Assembly (NCBI GenBank): GCA_017676145.1 | Contig: GCA_017676145.1_3628.1 | Source of the DNA: a phage | DNA: 64,000 nucleotides | Direction: 5' to 3' (one strand) | In this document: piece after piece, positions 30,085 through 55,283 of the stretch | Layout: the number at the start of each line of letters is the position of its first letter | Numbering within the stretch: position 1 is the first letter of the stretch | The notes under the pieces: generated by a model | Seen by the model: only the letters and a program-made list of their open reading frames with translations | Told to the model about the DNA's origin: nothing | Database searches by the model: none | Translations under genes and position numbers: made by a program

Positions 30085-30348
30085 ATGGCAACAGAGTTAA
30101 AATTTGCATCAAACCGTAAAACTAAGAAATATCTGTCCTCAGTGGCTCCAGGCACTGTGGTGATGTTTGTTGATGAACTTGGGGATGTGAATACAGCACT
30201 TGTTGTAAAATCACATCCTGCAAACATATATGTTGGGGTATTTGACCTGTTCAGAAAAGTGTTTGTAGAACTACCCCACAGTTTAGTTGTTACAGAAATG
30301 GATGCCTGCATAGAAATTCTTGGCGAAGTTATGGTGGAGGAACAATAA
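30085..30348 (+). CDS. Hypothetical protein, tandem paralog 1 of 4
   Basis: 87 aa; GAGGGGG RBS; same length and K-rich N-terminus as the next two copies. Confidence 0.6.
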   Translation: MATELKFASNRKTKKYLSSVAPGTVVMFVDELGDVNTALVVKSHPANIYVGVFDLFRKVFVELPHSLVVTEMDACIEILGEVMVEEQ

Positions 30349-30611
30349 TGGCTACTAGCATTGTATTCAATTCTAAGGTGAAGAACAAAAAGCGTGCAGA
30401 CAGCTTTCCGTGTGGGACCGTGGTAAGTTGCGACGGAGACGGCATTCAAAACATAGTTATGATTGTCAAAACAGGAGAACATTGTGTGTGGGGGTTCGAT
30501 TTAGAAAATAATGAGTTGTACGATCTGCCACCAAACATGAAAGTTACAGAGCTTGACACCAAAATTACCATCCTTGGAGAGACAAGCTATTCAAAAGAAG
30601 GAGGAGAATAA
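30348..30611 (+). CDS. Hypothetical protein, tandem paralog 2 of 4
   Basis: 87 aa; ATG overlaps the upstream stop (translational coupling). Confidence 0.6.
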   Translation: MATSIVFNSKVKNKKRADSFPCGTVVSCDGDGIQNIVMIVKTGEHCVWGFDLENNELYDLPPNMKVTELDTKITILGETSYSKEGGE

Positions 30612-30874
30612 TGACCACAAAAATCACTATCGCAGAACCGAAAGCTAACACTCAACCTATCGAAAAGTTTAAATGCGGGGAGGTGGTAACATTTACACCA
30701 GATAATGAAGATGCTAAGATTTTCGCCATGGTCACAGCTGAGTGGATGTGTGACAATACCACACAGGTTCTGCGTTTTGACACCTATCTTACAGATGAAA
30801 TCAGGAACGATAAGATCGTGACTGGTGTGGATACTGAGATTATTTTCTACAAGAGCTTTTTAGAGGGTTTCTGA
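30611..30874 (+). CDS. Hypothetical protein, tandem paralog 3 of 4
   Basis: 87 aa; ATG overlaps the upstream stop. Confidence 0.6.
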   Translation: MTTKITIAEPKANTQPIEKFKCGEVVTFTPDNEDAKIFAMVTAEWMCDNTTQVLRFDTYLTDEIRNDKIVTGVDTEIIFYKSFLEGF

Positions 30875-30875
30875 T

Positions 30876-31109
30876 ATGGCAAAAATTCGTAAATTATCCA
30901 GCAATCAAGTTGTGAAAGACTTTGAATCTGGAGAGATTCTGTATGTTCGTGATGCAGATGACGAAGGTGAAGATCTTGTTATGCTAGTAGGACACGCTGA
31001 AGACGGATGCATACAGGCTGTTTTTCTTGAAACAGCTATGGTGCACTGGATAGAGCTGGACCTGAAAGCACGAAAACCTAAAGCAGAGATCCTGATTTAC
31101 GAAGATTAA
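30876..31109 (+). CDS. Hypothetical protein, tandem paralog 4 of 4
   Basis: 77 aa; similar layout, acidic core DADDEGEDLVMLVGHAEDG. Confidence 0.55.
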   Translation: MAKIRKLSSNQVVKDFESGEILYVRDADDEGEDLVMLVGHAEDGCIQAVFLETAMVHWIELDLKARKPKAEILIYED

Positions 31110-33955: not shown

Positions 33956-34363
33956 ATGGATAATCTTGCAAGTGTAAACGTAGAAATTGTTAAACTAAAG
34001 TTCTTGGGCTTTCGAGACCCTAATTCTCTAACAGCTATACTGATGGATACCCACTTCACACCGGGGAAAGAGTACACTGCCTTCCGTTATACTCACGGAG
34101 ATCACGAATCGGCCTATAGTGTGAATACAAACCTCGGTGAGGGATATTTCATCAGAGATATCACAGATCACTTGTGGGGTATGTGGGAATTGGTGGGAGA
34201 AGAGAATAAATCCCTTCCCAAAGAGATTTGGGTGCACACCTTCCACACAGGGAAGTTTGGTGGAACGGAGCATAAATCTATCCACTATGATGAAGGAAGT
34301 GCCATCAAGCAACAAGCTGTGCTTGGCGGATCTGTAGAAAAATTTGTTAAATGCGAGGACTGA
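33956..34363 (+). CDS. Hypothetical protein
   Basis: ATG at 33956 (MDNLASV...) with GAGGAG RBS, preferred over the track start at 33881. Confidence 0.5.
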   Translation: MDNLASVNVEIVKLKFLGFRDPNSLTAILMDTHFTPGKEYTAFRYTHGDHESAYSVNTNLGEGYFIRDITDHLWGMWELVGEENKSLPKEIWVHTFHTGKFGGTEHKSIHYDEGSAIKQQAVLGGSVEKFVKCED

Positions 34364-34366
34364 GAA

Positions 34367-34567
34367 ATGGCTGATTTTTGTAAAGATTGCTCTGAAGAGT
34401 TGTTTGGCTTTGACTGCAAAGATTTGGAAGGTCTGATCACTGAGGATCAGTGGAAGGAAGGCTATGCAGCACCTGTTATTTGTGAAGGTTGTGGCTATAC
34501 CTATGTTGACCATAAAGGTAAGCGCGTCAAGCCGTCTGAAGATGGGGCATGTTGGGAGTATTACTAA
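34367..34567 (+). CDS. Small zinc-ribbon protein
   Basis: 66 aa; CKDC...CEGCG. Confidence 0.45.
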   Translation: MADFCKDCSEELFGFDCKDLEGLITEDQWKEGYAAPVICEGCGYTYVDHKGKRVKPSEDGACWEYY

Positions 34568-34571
34568 CTAT

Positions 34572-34606
34572 AAAAAGAAAGGGGCCGTTTGGCCCCTTTT
34601 TTATTT
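34572..34606. terminator. Bidirectional rho-independent terminator between convergent plus and minus blocks
   Basis: Hairpin ggggcc-gttt-ggcccc (34581-34596) flanked by aaaaagaaa upstream and tttttt downstream; lies between the plus-strand stop (34567) and the minus-strand stop (34616). Confidence 0.8.
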
Positions 34607-34615
34607 ACCCCCTTG

Positions 34616-37600
34616 TTAACGAGAAAAGGTTGCGTAGGCTTCTAGACGATACTGCTGGTCACCAGGGAACATAACACCTATAGAGGCTGTCCCTAGAATC
34701 CTGCCTTCCTTTCCAGACTCCATTCTGAACCCTACCCATCCTGAACTCCTTGCAGCATCGATGTTGTCTCTATACCCGAAAGTGGCAAGATCGTCAACAC
34801 CAGCCCCAAACAGCAACTGAAGCTGACTTCTCGGAAGCCCTATAATTTCAGGAATATACGCACCAAAGTACACCATCTGCCCTACCTTAGGACCGCTGCC
34901 GTACTCCATCGGCTTGCTTGTAGAGAAAGTCTTCATACCAGAAGTCCCTGCCGGATTAGGATATGCCCCGTTTGTTGCTGTACCTATCCACATTCTCCAC
35001 TGTGGTGCCATCTGTTTGACAGTAAAAGATGTTGAAGACGTTTTGCGCCCTGCATCATCTGTAACTACAAACTTTATAGTGACATTCCCAGTAGCTTTAA
35101 ATGTTACCAGCCCTGTGGTAGCATCCACTGTTGCAATGTTGGTATTACTACTTTCCCAAGTCTTTCTGATTCCTGGCACATTGGAAGGGGTAATAGAAGG
35201 TTCCTGCATCTGCAGTTTACCACCTACAATCCCTATCCCGTTTCCTGGATTATACAACGCACCAACCTCGTCTACAATGTTACCTGCCTTGAGGCTGTAC
35301 TTTTTAGAGAAGTTGTAAGTGCCGTTATATGTGTGTGTCCCTGAGAAGGTTACATCTGCTTTTCCGTAAGAGATGCAAACCAAAGCATACTTCCTGTCAG
35401 GCAACGGTGCCCCAGTTTCTGGGTGAGTTTTACCCACCTGAAACACACTCGGGTCAGTGGAGTCTTGGCTATCACTAACGGAGTTTGGACCCCCCATCAG
35501 TTGTGACAGGCAATTCCTTACCCATGTCCAGTTATTATCGCTGGAGAAGTCCACAGTTAAATCAAACACAACCCACTCATTTGGCTTCCACACAGGTGTT
35601 GCAATGGACTTGCCTACACCGCCTCCTTGGAGTGTTGCCGACTGTTCAGTGATCAGGGCCGCGTAGGCCAGAGTTCCTAAACTCAGAGTTTGGCTTGCTG
35701 TCCTCACTACCTTAGAATCAGCATCTGTGAAGTTGTTGATGATCTGGAATGTGCCATAAGTGTTTTTACAGGTAATTCTGGCGTTCAGCGTGTCAATCTT
35801 CCTCACATCTGCCATAGCAGTGTTAGACACAGAGAAGTCAGAAGCTTTAGCTGAGTTTGCCGCAACAGCAGGATCAACGTTAAGAGTTGCGTTGAACTGA
35901 CAAGCTGGGGTAACCAGCAGCTTGTTATCACCTATTTGCTTCCATGAAACACTTTGAACAGGGAGATTCCATTTAATACCTGAGAAAACTTTAGCAACCC
36001 TTGGCCCCAGAGCTCCAGTCCTGGTGTCTTTACAGCACATGGACATGGTGATCGTTGACGGAGTGGCCTGACCAAACAATTGCTGTGCTTTTGCAGAGGA
36101 CATGGTGTAGAAATTGTCCTTAACAAACTCATCAGCCGCCAATGATCCGTCAGATCTCCACCATTGCACCTGGTACCCTGTCTTATCCCAGCCACCGACC
36201 TGCTTCAGGTCCTCCCAGGAGATTTCCAGATCCCCAGTGGTAGGGTTGATTGCAGCAGTTCCTGGTGTTCCAGAGGACCATAATGGGATATCGAACCATG
36301 CTGGTTTAACAGATTGTACTGCGTTCGGTCCTATTGCAGCAGCAAGTTGCTGACCCATCAACACACGAGAATCTTTTACCAAGCCCCATTCAATCATGGA
36401 CCCAGAGTAGCCTTCTTTCTTATAGGCCGAAGATCCGTTCAAATGGATAAGCCTGCTGCAGTCGAAACCATACGCCCCGCCACCGTTAGGATCTGCAAAG
36501 TTAGTTATGATTCTATCCCTTATATTTTTCCATGCCCTGCCTCCAATCTCGTAGTCATGGTCATAACATCTCTGCAGCGTTGTCCAGCAAATGATTGCCA
36601 TTCTTCTGCCACCAGTAAACCCGAAAGCGCCGTCATTCAACTCTTTCCACAGATAGCAGTTAGTTGCCCACATAGCTCTGTGGATATTGAACCAGTTTAT
36701 AGACTTAGCAGAATTGTCCCACTGAGTTCCCGGTAATTCAGGCCACACTGCATTAACCAACATGTCTTCTGTTCCTGCATCAACTAAGAACCCTCTCACC
36801 TTTTTACCCATACCTGCCCTGTCTTTAGCAATCCAATTGCCAAACAGTCTCAGTTTTGGACCATAAACGACATCCTCTGGGTGCTCAAAAGAAACATACT
36901 TTAAGTAGATTGTTGGGTCACCGTAGGTGCCATCACAAACACTTTTGTGCATGTTTTCGCCAAGATCTAGACGAAGCCCTGTCACCACTTTAGACGTGTC
37001 GGTGAATTTGTCTGTTAAATCAAATTCATACCACCACCATCCACCACCAAGCATAAATTTCTTGCATCGAGCATTGTCTGTATCAGATATTCTCTTATCC
37101 CCTGCAAAAGGTGAATCAGCAAACTGATAATGCAGAGCAGTCTCGAATAAATGTGTTGAGGTTCCGTTTTCTGCAAGAACTTGCTTACCTATTAAGTCGC
37201 ACTTAATGATCATCACAACACGTTTGTACCCGTTTGTTACTGGAACTTGCATAGACATGGATGTCCCATCCATGTTTGATCTCAGCACGGTCATGACGAT
37301 ATAAGGGTCAACGGCATTGCCCAGAGTTTCAGGACCAGGGATTATCTTGTACTTCTTAACCTGCCCCATAAACCTGTCACTGGCGTAAGTTGCAGCCTCG
37401 AAGCAAGATCCTCCATTAGGTAGTTCGCCAGGACCCCAGAAAAATGCGCCATAACAGTTATAAAACCACTTGTTAGGATCGTATTTGTTCTTGAAGGTCT
37501 GAACCTCGTTAGCCTGTTTTGTCAAGAAAACCTGAGTATCTGTGAAGATTGCAGGATTCACTCTTGCCTGTCGATCAGCATATCCAGGTTGGTTAAACCA

Positions 37601-40252
37601 CTGATTGCAAGAATAGTCCCGCATATAGTCATAATCAGAGTATTTGTTGTTTGCATCCTCGTTCCAACACATATTAAGGTTGGTGCCGCCCATGCACACA
37701 ATATATTCTTCAACATATTTATCACTTCTGGTGGGAATACCTGTGAACCATCTGTTAACAGGTTCGTTCCAAGCGGTACGCTCATCTTTAACGCAGATCG
37801 CAATCCAGTCATGTGTTCCTGTTTTCTTGCACACATCTCGCTTCATACCATAGTAGAATTCTTTAGTATTCGGCTCAGGTGCGCTTATCAGGTAGCTCCA
37901 CGCTTGGTCTGCATAGGTTCCGTCGGTGCGTGGGTCATGATCAAAAGCGTACATAATGATCCTTTCCCCGCCAAGATGTTCACCAAGAGTAACTTTGATG
38001 TTCACATCCCCGTAACCATTGCGAACAACATCCATATTGTCAATAGAGATGCCTCTGGGTGTGTAGGCAATTTTCAGCGAGTTATCCTCACTGGTGCCGC
38101 CAAGAGTAATCCCAATATTGTTTGTCGTCCCGTCGGCATATCTTACCGTGGCTTCCCAGCGTATTCCGAAATATCCTACGTCATGGCTGACAATTTTTAG
38201 TGTACGAGCACCTGGGTTCGGTTTCCCAGGATCAGGCCAAGGGTTTGGGTGTTCGTGAACAGTCAACGATGTCCCGTTTTGTTCGTTGACCTGCAACATT
38301 TTACCACCTCTGCCGTTTGGGTTGAACTCCCATAAGGCCTGTGTCTGCACCAAGTTATCATAGGTATTTCGTCGCTGATTATAAATCTCTTGGGTAACAT
38401 CAGAAGTTACTGATCCAGCATCCATTCTATGGAGTCTGATCATATACGATGTATCCCCTTCTACTGCAGGCTGAGCCGCATTCAGTCCAAAGTATACGGT
38501 GTCATTAACATGGAACTGTTTGTTTCTACCGGCAGTATGCCATTTACCATCAGACGGGTACGCTGGGACGATAGTGTTCCAGTTCAAATTCCTTGTTGTG
38601 TGGGTCCTGCCTGTGCCATGTTTGTCATGATAGGTTATTTTTACAGAGTACAGGCCACGTCTATTAACATTCCTGTTATACTGGGTAACAATAACTTCGT
38701 TGGCCCCACCGTGGTTCCAGTTGGTAGAGAATTGGTAATTTGCATCTGTAACAACCGTGCCTGCAGCATTTACCAGTTCAATCTTATCAATAATGAACGT
38801 GGCCCCTTCTGGTTGAGGCTTCAATTTCATCTTGACCGTATCACCAATGTAAATATTGCTAACACTGCTAACACCGTTAACGTCGAAAATATCTTCAACA
38901 CCCCAACTATCTACTGGGACATTTTTATACCAATTCTCAGGTACCTCCGTGAACCCTTGGCTATTAAGTCTGCCGCCAAACAGGTTATTAGAGCCTGCAA
39001 AACTTCCCCTTGGGATACCTGACCACCAAAGTTTACCATTAACAACAGTAAAGGTTCCTAAAAAACCCTCCCTGTGAATGCCTTGGAAATAAACACTCTC
39101 TGTCCAGCTAACTGGGAGGCGTTGCTCAACGTATTTGGCTGTGGCAAGAGCTTGGTAGTGGATAAAATTGGCCCTAGGGCTATTGTTTGCAGATTGTGCA
39201 CCAATATCATTACATAAGTTGCGAGAGAATCCACGATACTGCTTAGTGCCATTATTGAAGAAAATACCGCTTGTTCCGTACCCACGAGCCATTATTACTT
39301 CATGGGTGTAGGTAATATTTAAGGAACGCCATGTATCATCTCCCCAGACATTTTGCCCGTAGAATACGTTAACAAGCTGCTGGTCATCAGGTCTGTGCAT
39401 TCTTTGTGTTACAACCACTGCCCCGTTCGGACCGCACATGAACCCTTTCCACTCCTCATCTGCAGGAATACCTCTCAAATCGTCACGGGTAATCTGAGCA
39501 GGAGGCCAAACAAGGTCGTTTCTACTGTTGTTTCTCAGAAAATCGTACCCAGCAATCCAGAAACCTCTAGGACCACCGAAAATAACAGAGTTATCATGCA
39601 CCTCACAGTTGATGCTTGGGTTTTTCCAAGGACCTGTTTCAGGATTTTCCGATGTTTCACCAATCTTTACAGGGGTTGCATGCTGGTTTTTATCCACATG
39701 TAAAGATCCGTAGGTGTTGTTACCAGATCCGTACAGGTGTAAAATGCCAGTGCCTTCTGCCTCTGCAATAACCCAAACAGTGTTGTTAATACCGCCCATC
39801 ACCTCAACAAGACGCTCTGGGTGGGTGTCAAGGTGCAACCCTTTAACAATCTGTTCAGGAAGAGGTGTCCACTCGCTTACGTAAACATCATTACCACCTG
39901 CCGCAGTGGATCCGATAAGACCTGCAGTGCAGCCGATGTAGAAAAACTGGTTATCAAAAGTCCGAATCACAAACGCACGGTCTGCTCTCCACACATGATC
40001 AACATTCCAGGCTGTTTCGCTAGGGTAGTTTATAGGGTTACGATCCCCAGTGCGACACTCCCCGAACTTGTTATAGCCAGTGATATTAAGTTGACCGTCG
40101 TCAAAAAGTATAGCTAAGCTATTTACATAGGCTACTGCAGTGCTTGTACCGTCACTGTTGTCTATTGGGTATGACAGAACAGCAAGTTCCTTAACTCCAC
40201 CCCTCTTATCGAGGAAATGACGACCAAGTTTTAGCAAAGGGATTGGAAGCAT
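34616..40252 (-). CDS. Giant tail fibre / adhesin-like structural protein (1878 aa)
   Basis: Longest ORF in the window; C-terminal Big_2-like Ig segment (ATVDATTGLVTFKATGNVTIKFVVTDDAGRK); Gly/Trp-rich repeats consistent with beta-rich domains; last gene of the late block; GGAG RBS. Confidence 0.6.
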   Translation of the reverse strand: MLPIPLLKLGRHFLDKRGGVKELAVLSYPIDNSDGTSTAVAYVNSLAILFDDGQLNITGYNKFGECRTGDRNPINYPSETAWNVDHVWRADRAFVIRTFDNQFFYIGCTAGLIGSTAAGGNDVYVSEWTPLPEQIVKGLHLDTHPERLVEVMGGINNTVWVIAEAEGTGILHLYGSGNNTYGSLHVDKNQHATPVKIGETSENPETGPWKNPSINCEVHDNSVIFGGPRGFWIAGYDFLRNNSRNDLVWPPAQITRDDLRGIPADEEWKGFMCGPNGAVVVTQRMHRPDDQQLVNVFYGQNVWGDDTWRSLNITYTHEVIMARGYGTSGIFFNNGTKQYRGFSRNLCNDIGAQSANNSPRANFIHYQALATAKYVEQRLPVSWTESVYFQGIHREGFLGTFTVVNGKLWWSGIPRGSFAGSNNLFGGRLNSQGFTEVPENWYKNVPVDSWGVEDIFDVNGVSSVSNIYIGDTVKMKLKPQPEGATFIIDKIELVNAAGTVVTDANYQFSTNWNHGGANEVIVTQYNRNVNRRGLYSVKITYHDKHGTGRTHTTRNLNWNTIVPAYPSDGKWHTAGRNKQFHVNDTVYFGLNAAQPAVEGDTSYMIRLHRMDAGSVTSDVTQEIYNQRRNTYDNLVQTQALWEFNPNGRGGKMLQVNEQNGTSLTVHEHPNPWPDPGKPNPGARTLKIVSHDVGYFGIRWEATVRYADGTTNNIGITLGGTSEDNSLKIAYTPRGISIDNMDVVRNGYGDVNIKVTLGEHLGGERIIMYAFDHDPRTDGTYADQAWSYLISAPEPNTKEFYYGMKRDVCKKTGTHDWIAICVKDERTAWNEPVNRWFTGIPTRSDKYVEEYIVCMGGTNLNMCWNEDANNKYSDYDYMRDYSCNQWFNQPGYADRQARVNPAIFTDTQVFLTKQANEVQTFKNKYDPNKWFYNCYGAFFWGPGELPNGGSCFEAATYASDRFMGQVKKYKIIPGPETLGNAVDPYIVMTVLRSNMDGTSMSMQVPVTNGYKRVVMIIKCDLIGKQVLAENGTSTHLFETALHYQFADSPFAGDKRISDTDNARCKKFMLGGGWWWYEFDLTDKFTDTSKVVTGLRLDLGENMHKSVCDGTYGDPTIYLKYVSFEHPEDVVYGPKLRLFGNWIAKDRAGMGKKVRGFLVDAGTEDMLVNAVWPELPGTQWDNSAKSINWFNIHRAMWATNCYLWKELNDGAFGFTGGRRMAIICWTTLQRCYDHDYEIGGRAWKNIRDRIITNFADPNGGGAYGFDCSRLIHLNGSSAYKKEGYSGSMIEWGLVKDSRVLMGQQLAAAIGPNAVQSVKPAWFDIPLWSSGTPGTAAINPTTGDLEISWEDLKQVGGWDKTGYQVQWWRSDGSLAADEFVKDNFYTMSSAKAQQLFGQATPSTITMSMCCKDTRTGALGPRVAKVFSGIKWNLPVQSVSWKQIGDNKLLVTPACQFNATLNVDPAVAANSAKASDFSVSNTAMADVRKIDTLNARITCKNTYGTFQIINNFTDADSKVVRTASQTLSLGTLAYAALITEQSATLQGGGVGKSIATPVWKPNEWVVFDLTVDFSSDNNWTWVRNCLSQLMGGPNSVSDSQDSTDPSVFQVGKTHPETGAPLPDRKYALVCISYGKADVTFSGTHTYNGTYNFSKKYSLKAGNIVDEVGALYNPGNGIGIVGGKLQMQEPSITPSNVPGIRKTWESSNTNIATVDATTGLVTFKATGNVTIKFVVTDDAGRKTSSTSFTVKQMAPQWRMWIGTATNGAYPNPAGTSGMKTFSTSKPMEYGSGPKVGQMVYFGAYIPEIIGLPRSQLQLLFGAGVDDLATFGYRDNIDAARSSGWVGFRMESGKEGRILGTASIGVMFPGDQQYRLEAYATFSR

Positions 40253-40265
40253 TGTGTTCTCCAGA

Positions 40266-40292
40266 TAAGAAAACCGCCCCGTCAGGAGCGGT
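40266..40292 (-). terminator. Possible terminator / stem-loop
   Basis: Minus strand reads accgc-loop-gcggt followed by TTTTCTT, then the RBS of the 1878-aa gene. Confidence 0.4.
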
Positions 40293-40300
40293 CAGATATA

Positions 40301-42046
40301 TTAACGTTGTGCAATAACCACATCCACAATATCACCAACACCACAATATGTCAATTGTAGCAAGGTAACGCTGTTGGCTTTGTTGTTAATGACAGGGGTA
40401 GCCGACAGTATGGCATATTTATCGTGCAAAGTCACGTTGTGGCCTACAGCATCTTGAATGACATAGATGATTGCAGTAAACGGGTAAGGTTTATCTTCAG
40501 CCGATGTTCCAGGCCATTGGCCTATTGTAAAATCCCCTTTCGCGTGGACAACATACATGCTGGCCTGCCCGTTAGGTGTCCATGTCCCACTAGATGCGTC
40601 AACCTCCTCTAAATCAAAATCTACCTTCCCTGCGTGGAAAGTAGGGGCAGTAATAGTTTTACCAGCCTCAATTTCTTGAGAGGTGGTTATCTTACCACTG
40701 GAGTTAATGCCGTTGCAGACAAAGTTAACATTAGAGAAGTCTGGCAGCCACCCAGTCACCGTGCCGGATATTTCAAGGTTGTGAAGATAAGTGGTTCCCG
40801 TACCTGCTGCGTTTAAACTAACATCTCCATTTACCTGCAAGTTGCGGGTAACGTTGCAGTTTTCAGAGTTTGCAGTTGTTGCAGTTAGAGTAGTGGTTGT
40901 CAGCTCGGTAATTGCACCTTTGTTGGCTGTAAGCCCTTCTCCTTCAAAAGTGGCACGCTCATTCACCCTCAGAGTATTTAAAGATATGTTCTGGACGGAT
41001 GCTGTGCCACGAATGACTATAGATCCGCCAACCTCTAAATCTCCATTGATCAGTGCATCTCCCGTGCTTTCAATATAGCTAGGGTAGATCATGGTGCCAT
41101 CTACAGAGTAGGTTATCCCTGTAACGGTACCTGTCACCTCAAGGTTCTTAACCCTGGTGGTCCCATCAACCTGCAATGTCGGTTCGGTTGCTGCCTTCAT
41201 GGCATTACCACGAATGTACACGTAGTCAAAAAAGTTATTACCTAGACCATCAAAATGCACATCGTTGTTATTAGCCACTGGTTTCCCAGAAGTTATAGTG
41301 TCAGCTATAACTCTGTGGGTGGCTACTTCATGAGGTTGCAGCTCTGTGCTTCTCCAGTCTGCATGCTTAGGATCGCTCCACGCAAAAGTCAGTGTAGAAG
41401 TATTTGCAGTAAGGATTAGGTTCCTGAAGCGTGCAGTAGAATCCGCTCCATTAACAGGCCCGTGTAAGGTAAGGGTGCCACCAACTATGGTGTTAGCAAG
41501 TTCTGTAAGACCTTTTACCACCAAAGACCCTACAGTAACTTTCATCCCCTCCATGGCTTTAAATATGCTATCCACATAGTCCACAACAAACTCTGTGTTT
41601 GCTATAGACTCGGACTTATCGTCCATTGGAGGTGTAGGTACTCGCGGGTCACCTTCGAATCTTGGGCTGTTAAGTTTTGCGTAGTATTTTGCCATTACTG
41701 CAGAATCGGTATATAATCTCCAGTTCGGAGATTGTGAAGGATCTGCTGGCATCCTAACCGGGTTAGATTTTGATGCTGCTGGGGCGTACCACCACTGAGG
41801 GCCTGTATCCCCTTTAAACTCATACAACTGGTTAAAAACTGTTGTGGATGCACCATACGCCCAAGGGATTGGTGGCGTTTTAAAATAAAGGGTGTCAAGC
41901 ATGGCTTTTCGTACCGTAGGGATGGTGGTCCCATCCTCTACGACAACTTCATCCACAGCGTTACCGTTGACAATCAGGTGCAAACGTTCAGAATCAACAA
42001 TTACTTGATCTACCGCCTGCTCAAAGCTTGTCATGTCTTGCGCCAT
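40301..42046 (-). CDS. Tail fibre protein
   Basis: 581 aa; Thr/Gly/Asn-rich beta-type repeats (LEVTGTVTGITYSVDGT, NLQVNGDVSLNAAGTGTTY) typical of fibre shafts. Confidence 0.6.
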   Translation of the reverse strand: MAQDMTSFEQAVDQVIVDSERLHLIVNGNAVDEVVVEDGTTIPTVRKAMLDTLYFKTPPIPWAYGASTTVFNQLYEFKGDTGPQWWYAPAASKSNPVRMPADPSQSPNWRLYTDSAVMAKYYAKLNSPRFEGDPRVPTPPMDDKSESIANTEFVVDYVDSIFKAMEGMKVTVGSLVVKGLTELANTIVGGTLTLHGPVNGADSTARFRNLILTANTSTLTFAWSDPKHADWRSTELQPHEVATHRVIADTITSGKPVANNNDVHFDGLGNNFFDYVYIRGNAMKAATEPTLQVDGTTRVKNLEVTGTVTGITYSVDGTMIYPSYIESTGDALINGDLEVGGSIVIRGTASVQNISLNTLRVNERATFEGEGLTANKGAITELTTTTLTATTANSENCNVTRNLQVNGDVSLNAAGTGTTYLHNLEISGTVTGWLPDFSNVNFVCNGINSSGKITTSQEIEAGKTITAPTFHAGKVDFDLEEVDASSGTWTPNGQASMYVVHAKGDFTIGQWPGTSAEDKPYPFTAIIYVIQDAVGHNVTLHDKYAILSATPVINNKANSVTLLQLTYCGVGDIVDVVIAQR

Positions 42047-43378: not shown

Positions 43379-43435
43379 GTTCTCCTGAGAAAATTCCTTA
43401 AGGACTATTTTAACACTTTAGAGAACAAAATGCAA

Positions 43436-49705: not shown

Positions 49706-49774
49706 GTCACTCCTCCGGTATGAAAATCTCTACAAGGTATTTTACCAAATTTTGTAACAATAGTCAATCTGAGC

Positions 49775-55218: not shown

Positions 55219-55283
55219 TGTGCCTCCAGGTTAAACAATCATGATAATTATTTTACCAGATTTTAAGTTAATACGCAATATAA

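Follow-up and report, generated by a model that had tools for sequence, protein, structure and literature searches.

The last gene of the minus-strand structural block in the 64,000-nucleotide (nt) phage DNA analysed here (contig GCA_017676145.1_3628.1 of assembly GCA_017676145.1; the whole stretch is hereafter called the window) is an orthologue of gene 27 of phage rV5. We propose, with a probability of about 0.5, that its product, gp27 (208.35 kDa, pI 6.4), is an accessory adhesin of the Vequintavirus tail-fibre apparatus, i.e., a large, low-copy and dispensable protein that is neither a recognisable enzyme nor a fibre of the classical kind. An accessory adhesin had already been suggested in an earlier note made from the letters of this DNA, and the suggestion fits what we found: a predicted N-terminal propeller combined with tandem immunoglobulin (Ig)-like domains, a genomic slot whose occupant varies or is missing in related genera, and a gene that is decayed in phage V18 and frameshifted in YP-6.

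The identity of the gene is clear. A megablast search with the 7-kb stretch around it matched 123 phage records, nearly all Vequintavirus, with Escherichia phage vB_EcoM_SYGMH1 at the top (97.6% nt identity), which places the window among these rV5-like myoviruses, and the gene order of the window is identical in the curated relatives CarlMeissner/Bas48, Murica and rV5. The single 5.6-kb open reading frame (ORF) of 1878 amino acids (aa) that had been described holds from end to end: phrog_15684 spans residues 1-1878 of 1878 (4416 bits), identity to rV5 gp27 (ORF 27, 1878 aa, 208,334 Da) is 94.1%, full-length copies are found in 110 phage records (at least 80% coverage, 88-99% aa identity), and the pairwise ratio of non-synonymous to synonymous substitution rates (dN/dS, Nei-Gojobori) is 0.06-0.09 over the whole length against five orthologues, at a dS of 0.4-0.9. 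This is a genuine gene under strong purifying selection, not a chance ORF. Its place as the last gene before the bidirectional terminator is equally secure, with a plus-strand ORF (34367..34567) converging on it from the other side of the hairpin. The Vequintavirus orthologues are alike in length (1875-1878 aa), in occupying the same slot between gp28 and the bidirectional terminator, and in their hairpins; the window allele carries the rV5-type C-terminal domain, not the FFH2/MaxBurger type, and otherwise shows no material difference from them.

The protein is already catalogued in public annotation, and flagging it adds nothing to the existing entries, in which it appears as a "hypothetical protein", a "cell wall surface anchor" (rV5), an "Ig-like domain-containing protein" (RefSeq), a "structural protein with Ig domain" or a "lateral tail fiber protein with intimin domain" (BASEL). 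Some database records that match it are filed under unexpected hosts. There are 15-16 records of the MG0656xx series, named "Campylobacter phage" (host C. jejuni), with ~93% nt identity over the whole 7 kb (window 34000-41000), and these look like rV5-like coliphages under the wrong host or contaminants of those preparations. Similarly, a 318-aa "hypothetical protein, partial [Eggerthella lenta]" (P0019) is 100% identical to part of the gp27 N terminus, and a 124-kb contig carries a full-length copy with 73% identity (P0002) that is recorded as an E. coli protein; in both cases, phage DNA has probably ended up inside bacterial assemblies.

The domain content of gp27 is the first line of evidence for an adhesin. 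The C-terminal Ig-like segment that had been predicted is present: Pfam Big_2 (PF02368) matches residues 1686-1733 (nt 35054-35197) with 31.7 bits against a gathering cut-off of 22.8 (36.5 bits in a scan restricted to the last 298 aa), residues 1696-1735 match intimin and the S-layer protein Sap in the PDB, and phrog_215, a head and packaging entry named "structural protein with Ig domain", is matched by the C-terminal 290 aa. With an Ig-like domain in place, the refutation foreseen in the earlier note (absence from virions together with a lack of fibre-like or Ig-like domains) does not apply. Foldseek alignments of residues 1331-1760 ran over 450-650 columns and had as partners proteins built of tandem domains (e.g., NUP210, cadherins, Sidekick and Sap), and the neighbours of the Ig-like part among the viral models of BFVD include Hoc, major head and tail proteins that bear Ig domains, PVP-SE1 gp40 and alia_33. 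At the other end of the protein, a seven-blade β-propeller of the RCC1 type is predicted. WD40_RLD (PF25390) matches residues 40-199 at E=3.2e-5, but with 23.9 bits against a curated cut-off of 150, and RCC1_2 reaches 13.3 bits against a cut-off of 22; the homologues gp180, gp40 and 4MG_038 do pass the 21.7-bit cut-off of the RCC1 repeat (PF00415), with 24.0, 36.1 and 36.9 bits. Identity over residues 1-197 is 40% to phAPEC8 gp180 and 31% to PVP-SE1 gp40, and over residues 1-293 it is 27% to 4MG_038. With a low-confidence AlphaFold2 (AF2) model (mean predicted local distance difference test score, pLDDT, 38), Foldseek returned HERC1 RLD3, UVR8, HERC2 RLD3, Kti13 and RCC1 (E 5e-4 to 8e-3, 270-340 columns, root-mean-square deviation ~11 Å). 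Glycine-rich blade motifs were counted seven times by eye in residues 40-430, five of them caught by a regular-expression scan, and PHROG 11922, "tail protein", matches residues 38-197. The very first residues, which precede the propeller, are a candidate docking or assembly element. The earlier note had also reported Gly/Trp-rich repeats. The composition is indeed enriched (G 10.0% versus 7.5%, W 3.0% versus 1.9% in the other long ORFs of the window), but a BLAST of gp27 against itself gave the identity match only and thus no internal sequence repeats; its sole repeat-like elements are the seven degenerate blades, which are N-terminal and away from the Ig-like segment.

Between these two ends, the protein is less readily classified. 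The β-sandwich spacer (residues 446-800) has a weak Bact_surface_Ig-like match in homologues and in one relative (P0015) is swapped for unrelated sequence (26% identity there versus 67% in the propeller). The central region (~800-1330) is kept throughout the family and has acidic and aromatic residues that do not vary; it comprises a β-sandwich at ~970-1125 (pLDDT 60-78) and a low-confidence helical segment at ~1130-1310, and most of it is modelled at pLDDT below 50. A full HMMER scan of 1.84e9 representative proteins with a profile of residues 780-1450 retrieved the family itself and two fragments only, and residues 801-1330 are without a match in Pfam, NCBIfam or PDB sequences. When the PDB was searched by sequence and by profile, using the entire protein, the alignment of the family and the N-terminal and central parts, the intimin/Sap Ig match was the only result; a word-indexed search with residues 1-470 found two near-identical entries only, and segment-wise Pfam (E up to 10) and NCBIfam searches added to what is described above only weak fn3 and RCC1 signals. 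AF2 was run on two halves with 7-row alignments, giving mean pLDDT values of 46.6 (residues 781-1878) and 38.0 (1-800). With models this poor, only the Ig-like and β-sandwich parts are usable and fold searches are informative for those parts alone.

The second line of evidence is variation and decay. Among seven Vequintavirus alleles, 13.8% of the sites vary, with peaks at residues 241-300 (33%), 961-1020 (28%), 1741-1800 (48%) and 1801-1860 (27%). Against the low background dN/dS, distinct allele classes are found at residues 1741-1878, 961-1330 and 241-460; dN between classes is 0.18-0.37 with dS saturated, while segments within a class are near-identical, which indicates exchanged alleles and not point-wise positive selection. 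For the C-terminal 293 aa, tblastn found ~74 records with at least 90% identity and ~40 at 60-86%, and Bas49 and Bas54, both imaged using cryo-electron microscopy (cryo-EM), carry different C-terminal classes. This C-terminal domain is worth considering as a candidate ligand-binding tip. Phage V18 (L016) has lost 226 aa of the propeller in frame; another deletion and several frameshifts have also hit the gene there, which is split into four annotated coding sequences (CDS). The YP-6 copy (L015), to which the window allele is most closely related, has a single frameshift, at codon ~397, and is annotated as two CDS. Sequencing error could explain the YP-6 frameshift but hardly the V18 deletions. 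The gene looks dispensable, since it is decayed in the viable V18 and its slot is empty in Mydovirus, and this supports its accessory status.

The third line of evidence comes from that slot, which lies directly after the lateral-fibre gene and is filled very differently in related phages. Its product has 1878 aa in Vequintavirus, ~1710-1980 aa in uncultured relatives (40-58% identity, with segment 1441-1600 swapped), 891 aa in Phapecoctavirus (phAPEC8 gp180), 604 and 567 aa in Seunavirus (PVP-SE1 gp40 and 4MG_038), 939 aa in Justusliebigvirus (alia_33) and 413 aa in Certrevirus (CB7_37, annotated as an "MS/MS confirmed" structural protein), and no gene fills the slot in Mydovirus (KpS8). The slot gene always comes last, after the lateral-fibre gene, in Vequintavirus, Phapecoctavirus, Seunavirus, Justusliebigvirus and Certrevirus. 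The proteins gp180, gp40, 4MG_038 and alia_33 (one from Phapecoctavirus, two from Seunavirus and one from Justusliebigvirus) share with gp27 the M[LFY]PIP start, the upstream hairpin and Shine-Dalgarno junction, and Big_2; the first three also share the RCC1-like propeller, while alia_33 starts with MYPIP, has two Big_2 domains and no propeller, and is 63% identical to gp180 at its C terminus. Unlike gp27, these proteins are two to three times shorter and do not have the ~1200 aa, orphan region included, that separate propeller and Ig array in gp27; past the first ~200 aa, they resemble gp27 at the level of Ig domains only. Homology is not claimed for the Certrevirus slot protein, as hhalign gave a non-significant result (probability 0.7%) when the propeller alignment was compared with CB7_37. 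Comparison of the locus among relatives, as proposed in the earlier note, thus reveals different slot genes between genera and, within the genus, one gene with mosaic alleles. The idea that the gene is an exchangeable module bounded by stem-loops survives in part: the slot does vary between genera, but the hairpins are ordinary terminators and exchange within the genus takes place inside the ORF. Hairpins as recombination boundaries within the genus were rejected on this ground, since the allele breakpoints sit inside the ORF.

Two minor observations on these relatives are worth recording. The Justusliebigvirus protein alia_33 (L006:7334-10153, plus strand) has a weak match to SASA (sialate O-acetylesterase-like) at residues 374-433, and is of possible relevance to the unassigned phi92 fibre II. 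An uncultured relative (Logan SRR25477885, 140-kb contig; L012:14189-15298, minus strand) encodes, in the early block beyond its gp27 homologue, a 369-aa protein with YadA_anchor, the membrane anchor of trimeric autotransporters, which is unusual in a lytic myovirus.

If gp27 belongs to the tail-fibre apparatus, the neighbouring fibre protein gp28 may be its carrier. gp28 matches the "putative tail fiber protein" of PDB 9cuy_g/9mjn (E=1.2e-76), is 44% identical to PVP-SE1 gp41, and Pfam Phage_phiTE_241_N/C are found on its orthologues. The corresponding long tail fibre of phiTE, which is like gp28 and not like gp27, aligns over the N-terminal 330 aa and the C-terminal head, and differs from gp28 in having 793 aa and a longer β-helix; it has been solved on the baseplate, where a helical bundle at its N terminus is bound to wedge and sheath initiator (PMC11972413). 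In the related phage CB7, the gene after the fibre gene encodes the 413-aa structural protein mentioned above, for which homology to gp27 is not demonstrable. gp28 and phAPEC8 gp179 are 51% identical in their last 105 aa and unrelated in the remainder, and gp27 and gp180 are in turn alike only in their first ~200 aa; this paired conservation of the gp28 C terminus and the gp27 N terminus is the pattern expected of two modules in contact. In the RBPseg study, the Vequintavirinae fibre class TC8 is described as a helical bundle, two β-helices and a C-terminal head, without InterPro annotation, and extra density on the TC8 head is unfilled by any fibre model (Bas49/Bas54). The description of TC8 fits gp28. 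Docking of gp27 specifically on the gp28 head is nevertheless only a tentative proposal, and one we would not expect to hold as readily as the adhesin role. As a separate observation, the gp28-type head caps fibres of collagen/fibritin type (Phapecoctavirus, Justusliebigvirus) as well as of β-helix type (Vequintavirus, Seunavirus, Certrevirus, Mydovirus).

The junction between the two genes suggests how their products might be kept at different levels. In all six genera, fibre gene and slot gene are 38-48 nt apart, and this gap consists of a GC-rich hairpin, a T-run, GGAG and ATG. Conservation is one of structure and not of sequence, since the stems vary in sequence from genus to genus. In rV5, t028 (-12.4 kcal/mol) and the bidirectional pair t027/t026 are listed as rho-independent terminators, and no promoter is listed between P030 and gp27 (PMC3606486, Table S4). 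The simplest reading of this arrangement is that gp27 would be made by read-through of the terminator, in smaller amounts than gp28. The position of gp27 between two terminators also resembles a moron-type cassette. With regard to late promoters in general, the predicted rV5 late-promoter core TGGTAAAATA (at most one mismatch) occurs 18 times in the window versus 5.9 expected, mostly on the minus strand, for example at 49738-49747 and 55249-55258 (minus strand), with one-mismatch copies inside gp28 at 40688-40697 and 41685-41694.

Put together as a mechanism, gp27 would be transcribed only via read-through of the hairpin that closes gp28, so that there would be less gp27 than fibre; its N-terminal end would dock on the C-terminal head of the gp28 trimer; and its Ig-like array and variable C-terminal domain, perhaps together with the variable face of the propeller, would make weak and reversible contacts with surface polymers that would raise adsorption on some hosts. 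We infer here the location on the virion, the attachment to gp28, the attenuated expression, the monomeric state and the ligand. A more ambitious version, which is unlikely to be right as a whole, sees gp27 as a giant, probably monomeric tip adhesin plugged via MxPIP into the gp28 head, with stoichiometry set by the read-through terminator; it would then be the density at the TC8 tip in Bas49/Bas54, and its orphan core of ~530 aa would be a new binding or catalytic fold. If true, this would describe a fibre-adhesin coupling module common to six genera of rV5-like and phi92-like phages.

Several observations weigh against an adhesin on the fibre. In the mass spectrometry (MS) table of rV5, gp27 is represented by 3 peptides and 9 spectra (3.1% coverage) with poor ranks and DeltaCN, at most one of the peptides has a tryptic (K/R) end, the protein shares its tier with gp1 (660 aa) and gp228, both presumably non-structural, and the authors left it out of their list of detected proteins. 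Association of gp27 with the virion is plausible, not established. Infection of K-12 by these phages is explained by enterobacterial common antigen (ECA)/N4 glycan receptor (NGR), via a deacetylase fibre, and the lipopolysaccharide (LPS) core, via short fibres, without gp27 (PMC8594841; preprint); these receptors leave it no essential role there, in keeping with an accessory role elsewhere, on other hosts or in different environments. The gp28 head turns up in 385 phage records, among them Mydovirus and jumbo phages (e.g., GAP32) that have no gp27-like partner, and so is not a dedicated adaptor, and TC8 (RBP65) is only a putative counterpart of gp28. The sigma-70-like site in the last codons of gp28 may be an alternative, independent promoter route for gp27, although such sites are no more numerous across the region than in shuffled sequence. 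Finally, as both AF2 models are poor, the domain boundaries and the propeller rest on weak structures and on profile matches below gathering cut-offs.

How do other explanations compare? In line with its BASEL annotation, gp27 might be a homotrimeric lateral tail fibre of the classical kind and make up one of the three sets of lateral fibres in Vequintavirinae. Its position within the tail-fibre module, a moderate allelic variation like that of other large fibre genes (BASEL paper, S5C legend), the PHROG 11922 "tail protein" match near its N terminus and a length that suits a long fibre all speak for this. However, searches of Pfam, PHROGs and NCBIfam found no coiled-coil, collagen, β-helix or triple-β-helix, T4 gp34-37-like or chaperone signature in gp27, unlike its neighbours gp28, phAPEC8 gp179 and alia_32, which show β-helix, collagen or fibritin signals; the predicted N-terminal propeller is a normally monomeric fold; everything else that is modelled with confidence consists of Ig-like beads of the sort found in monomeric adhesins; and in cryo-EM of two Vequintaviruses only three fibres are seen near the baseplate, none of them assigned to gp27. 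The designation as a fibre, which the earlier note had offered, is thus doubtful, and a classical trimeric fibre seems distinctly unlikely. That note had also entertained an enzyme, and the Trp/Asp/Glu-rich orphan region (~800-1330) might be an unrecognised glycan-degrading or glycan-modifying domain, another blade of a "Swiss army knife", as neighbouring fibre proteins carry glycosidase or deacetylase domains, the region is conserved with its invariant acidic and aromatic residues, and the Justusliebigvirus slot protein has a weak SASA esterase match. Yet no catalytic family was detected in gp27 by Pfam (E up to 10, seven segments), NCBIfam, PHROGs, PDB sequence profiles or the scan of 1.84 billion representatives, and the only moderately confident part of the region, ~530 aa of which are structurally dark, is a β-sandwich. 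An enzyme is thus unsupported and rather improbable, even if it is compatible with the reading that we prefer, since an adhesin can also carry an enzyme.

The two remaining alternatives place gp27 away from the tail altogether, and we regard both as very improbable. In one of them it decorates the head or neck as a Hoc-like fibre, whose Ig-like domains would serve weak adherence to mucus or cell surfaces; here one can point to the match of the C-terminal 290 aa to a head and packaging PHROG, to Hoc and Ig-bearing major/minor capsid proteins among the BFVD neighbours, and to the remark of the phi92 authors that the fibre candidates gp140 and gp151 resemble the head spike of Pa223, neither of which we link to gp27. 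The gene nevertheless lies at the far end of the tail-fibre cluster, coupled directly to the lateral-fibre gene in six genera and not encoded with head genes, no capsid-binding module was recognised, and the likeness to head proteins in PHROG and Foldseek searches is carried by generic Ig domains. In the other, gp27 is a moron-like product that is not part of the virion and acts in the infected cell or the lysate, for example as a decoy, in biofilm or mucus binding, or anchored to the surface, as in the original rV5 label "cell wall surface anchor". The flanking terminators, the weak MS evidence, the dispensability or decay of the gene in some isolates and the empty slot in Mydovirus are in its favour, but neither a signal peptide nor a membrane anchor can be read from the sequence of the N terminus, Certrevirus has in the equivalent position a structural protein annotated as MS/MS-confirmed, and the tight coupling of Shine-Dalgarno and ATG to the fibre gene, with the co-conserved modules of gp28 and gp27, points to co-assembly.

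An accessory adhesin would have known counterparts, none of which is a close match. Ig-like domains on phage virion proteins were reportedly described by Fraser et al. in 2006. T4 Hoc and similar Ig-bearing phage proteins are dispensable and are presumed to bind carbohydrates or surfaces weakly. Like these accessories (Hoc, and tail and head proteins with Big_2, I-set or Fn3 domains), gp27 carries Ig-like beads on a protein of the structural module; whereas they are usually small additions to a major structural protein or short decorations, it is a stand-alone protein of 208 kDa with a putative propeller and an orphan core, encoded in a fibre cluster. Another parallel is gp38 on gp37 of T4-type phages, a separate polypeptide encoded right after the fibre gene that sits at the fibre's distal end and presents a variable binding surface. 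This is a functional analogy only, with no relation in sequence or fold; gp38 has ~180-260 aa versus 1878, and the attachment of gp27 is a proposal. With the intimin/invasin family, gp27 shares a bead-like architecture and one Big_2 unit that aligns with the intimin D-domains, but it lacks the LysM, the β-barrel anchor and the C-type-lectin-like tip. Membership in the "intimin-like adhesin" family was rejected, as the equivalog NF033627 scores 21.9 bits against a cut-off of 1400 and residues 1696-1734 alone align. The "intimin domain" of the public label means merely Big_2.

Phages of the rV5 type rank among the broad-host-range E. coli phages isolated most often and have a place in therapy cocktails. 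Recent cryo-EM studies of phi92, Bas49/Bas54 and phiTE each leave one fibre or density unassigned. If gp27 is the tip protein of gp28, part of this fibre-assignment problem would be solved and its C-terminal alleles would offer an obvious handle for engineering; as no more than a dispensable accessory decorated with Ig domains, it would be ordinary. What we add, as leads from sequence, are the propeller assignment, the N-terminal peptide, the pair of gp28 C terminus and gp27 N terminus, the attenuator-like junction and the sequence-orphan core of 530 aa, all of which may bear on which gene makes which fibre in rV5-like and phi92-like phages. The coordinates are collected in Table 1.

Table 1. 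Features of the gp27 locus, in positions of the window
Feature	Position	Strand	Basis or remark
Complete gp27-type ORF, ATG start, 1878 aa + stop	34616..40252	-	Orthologue of rV5 gp27
N-terminal peptide MLPIPLLKL... (residues 1-16), M[LFY]PIP motif	40205..40252	-	Conserved across genera
Predicted RCC1-like seven-blade β-propeller, ~residues 20-445; variable patch 241-300	38918..40195	-	Profiles, Foldseek, Gly-rich motifs
β-sandwich (Ig-like) spacer, residues 446-800	37853..38917	-	DSSP all-β; Foldseek Ig V-set-like matches
Orphan central region, residues 801-1330, Trp/Cys-rich	36263..37852	-	No detected relatives outside the family
Fn3-like β-sandwich, residues 1331-1440	35933..36262	-	Weak fn3 match 1335-1375; pLDDT 60-69
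β-rich segment, residues 1441-1600	35453..35932	-	Genus-conserved; swapped (~20% identity) in relatives P0003-P0015
Tandem Ig-like domains, residues 1601-1760	34973..35452	-	Big_2, intimin match, pLDDT 70-90
C-terminal domain, residues 1741-1878, two allele classes	34619..35032	-	Variability among Vequintavirus isolates
Bidirectional rho-independent terminator, GGGGCC-AAAC-GGCCCC, A-run on one side, T-run on the other	34578..34599	.	rV5 t027/t026
Shine-Dalgarno GGAGA, 5 nt before ATG	40258..40262	-	Read from sequence
GC-rich hairpin (9 bp stem) then TTTTCTTAT, between gp28 and gp27; terminator/attenuator	40272..40293	-	rV5 t028
Sigma-70-like site TTGACA-17-TATTGT, upstream TG, 10/12 matches	40354-40326	-	Last codons of gp28, before the t028 hairpin
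gp28, 581 aa, trimeric lateral tail fibre, proposed gp27 carrier	40301..42046	-	Homologue of phiTE long tail fibre
gp28 C-terminal head, residues 477-581, candidate gp27 docking site	40304..40618	-	Shared with phAPEC8 gp179
Counterpart of predicted rV5 late promoter P030, nearest predicted promoter upstream of gp27	43396..43421	-	3 mismatches, 0 expected by chance

Elsewhere in the window, four consecutive small ORFs of 87, 87, 87 and 77 aa, abutting or overlapping by 1 base, lie on the plus strand at 30085-31109. They are diverged tandem paralogues, the first two being 38% identical and the others more weakly related, and the same array is carried by CarlMeissner, where its members are labelled hypothetical proteins.

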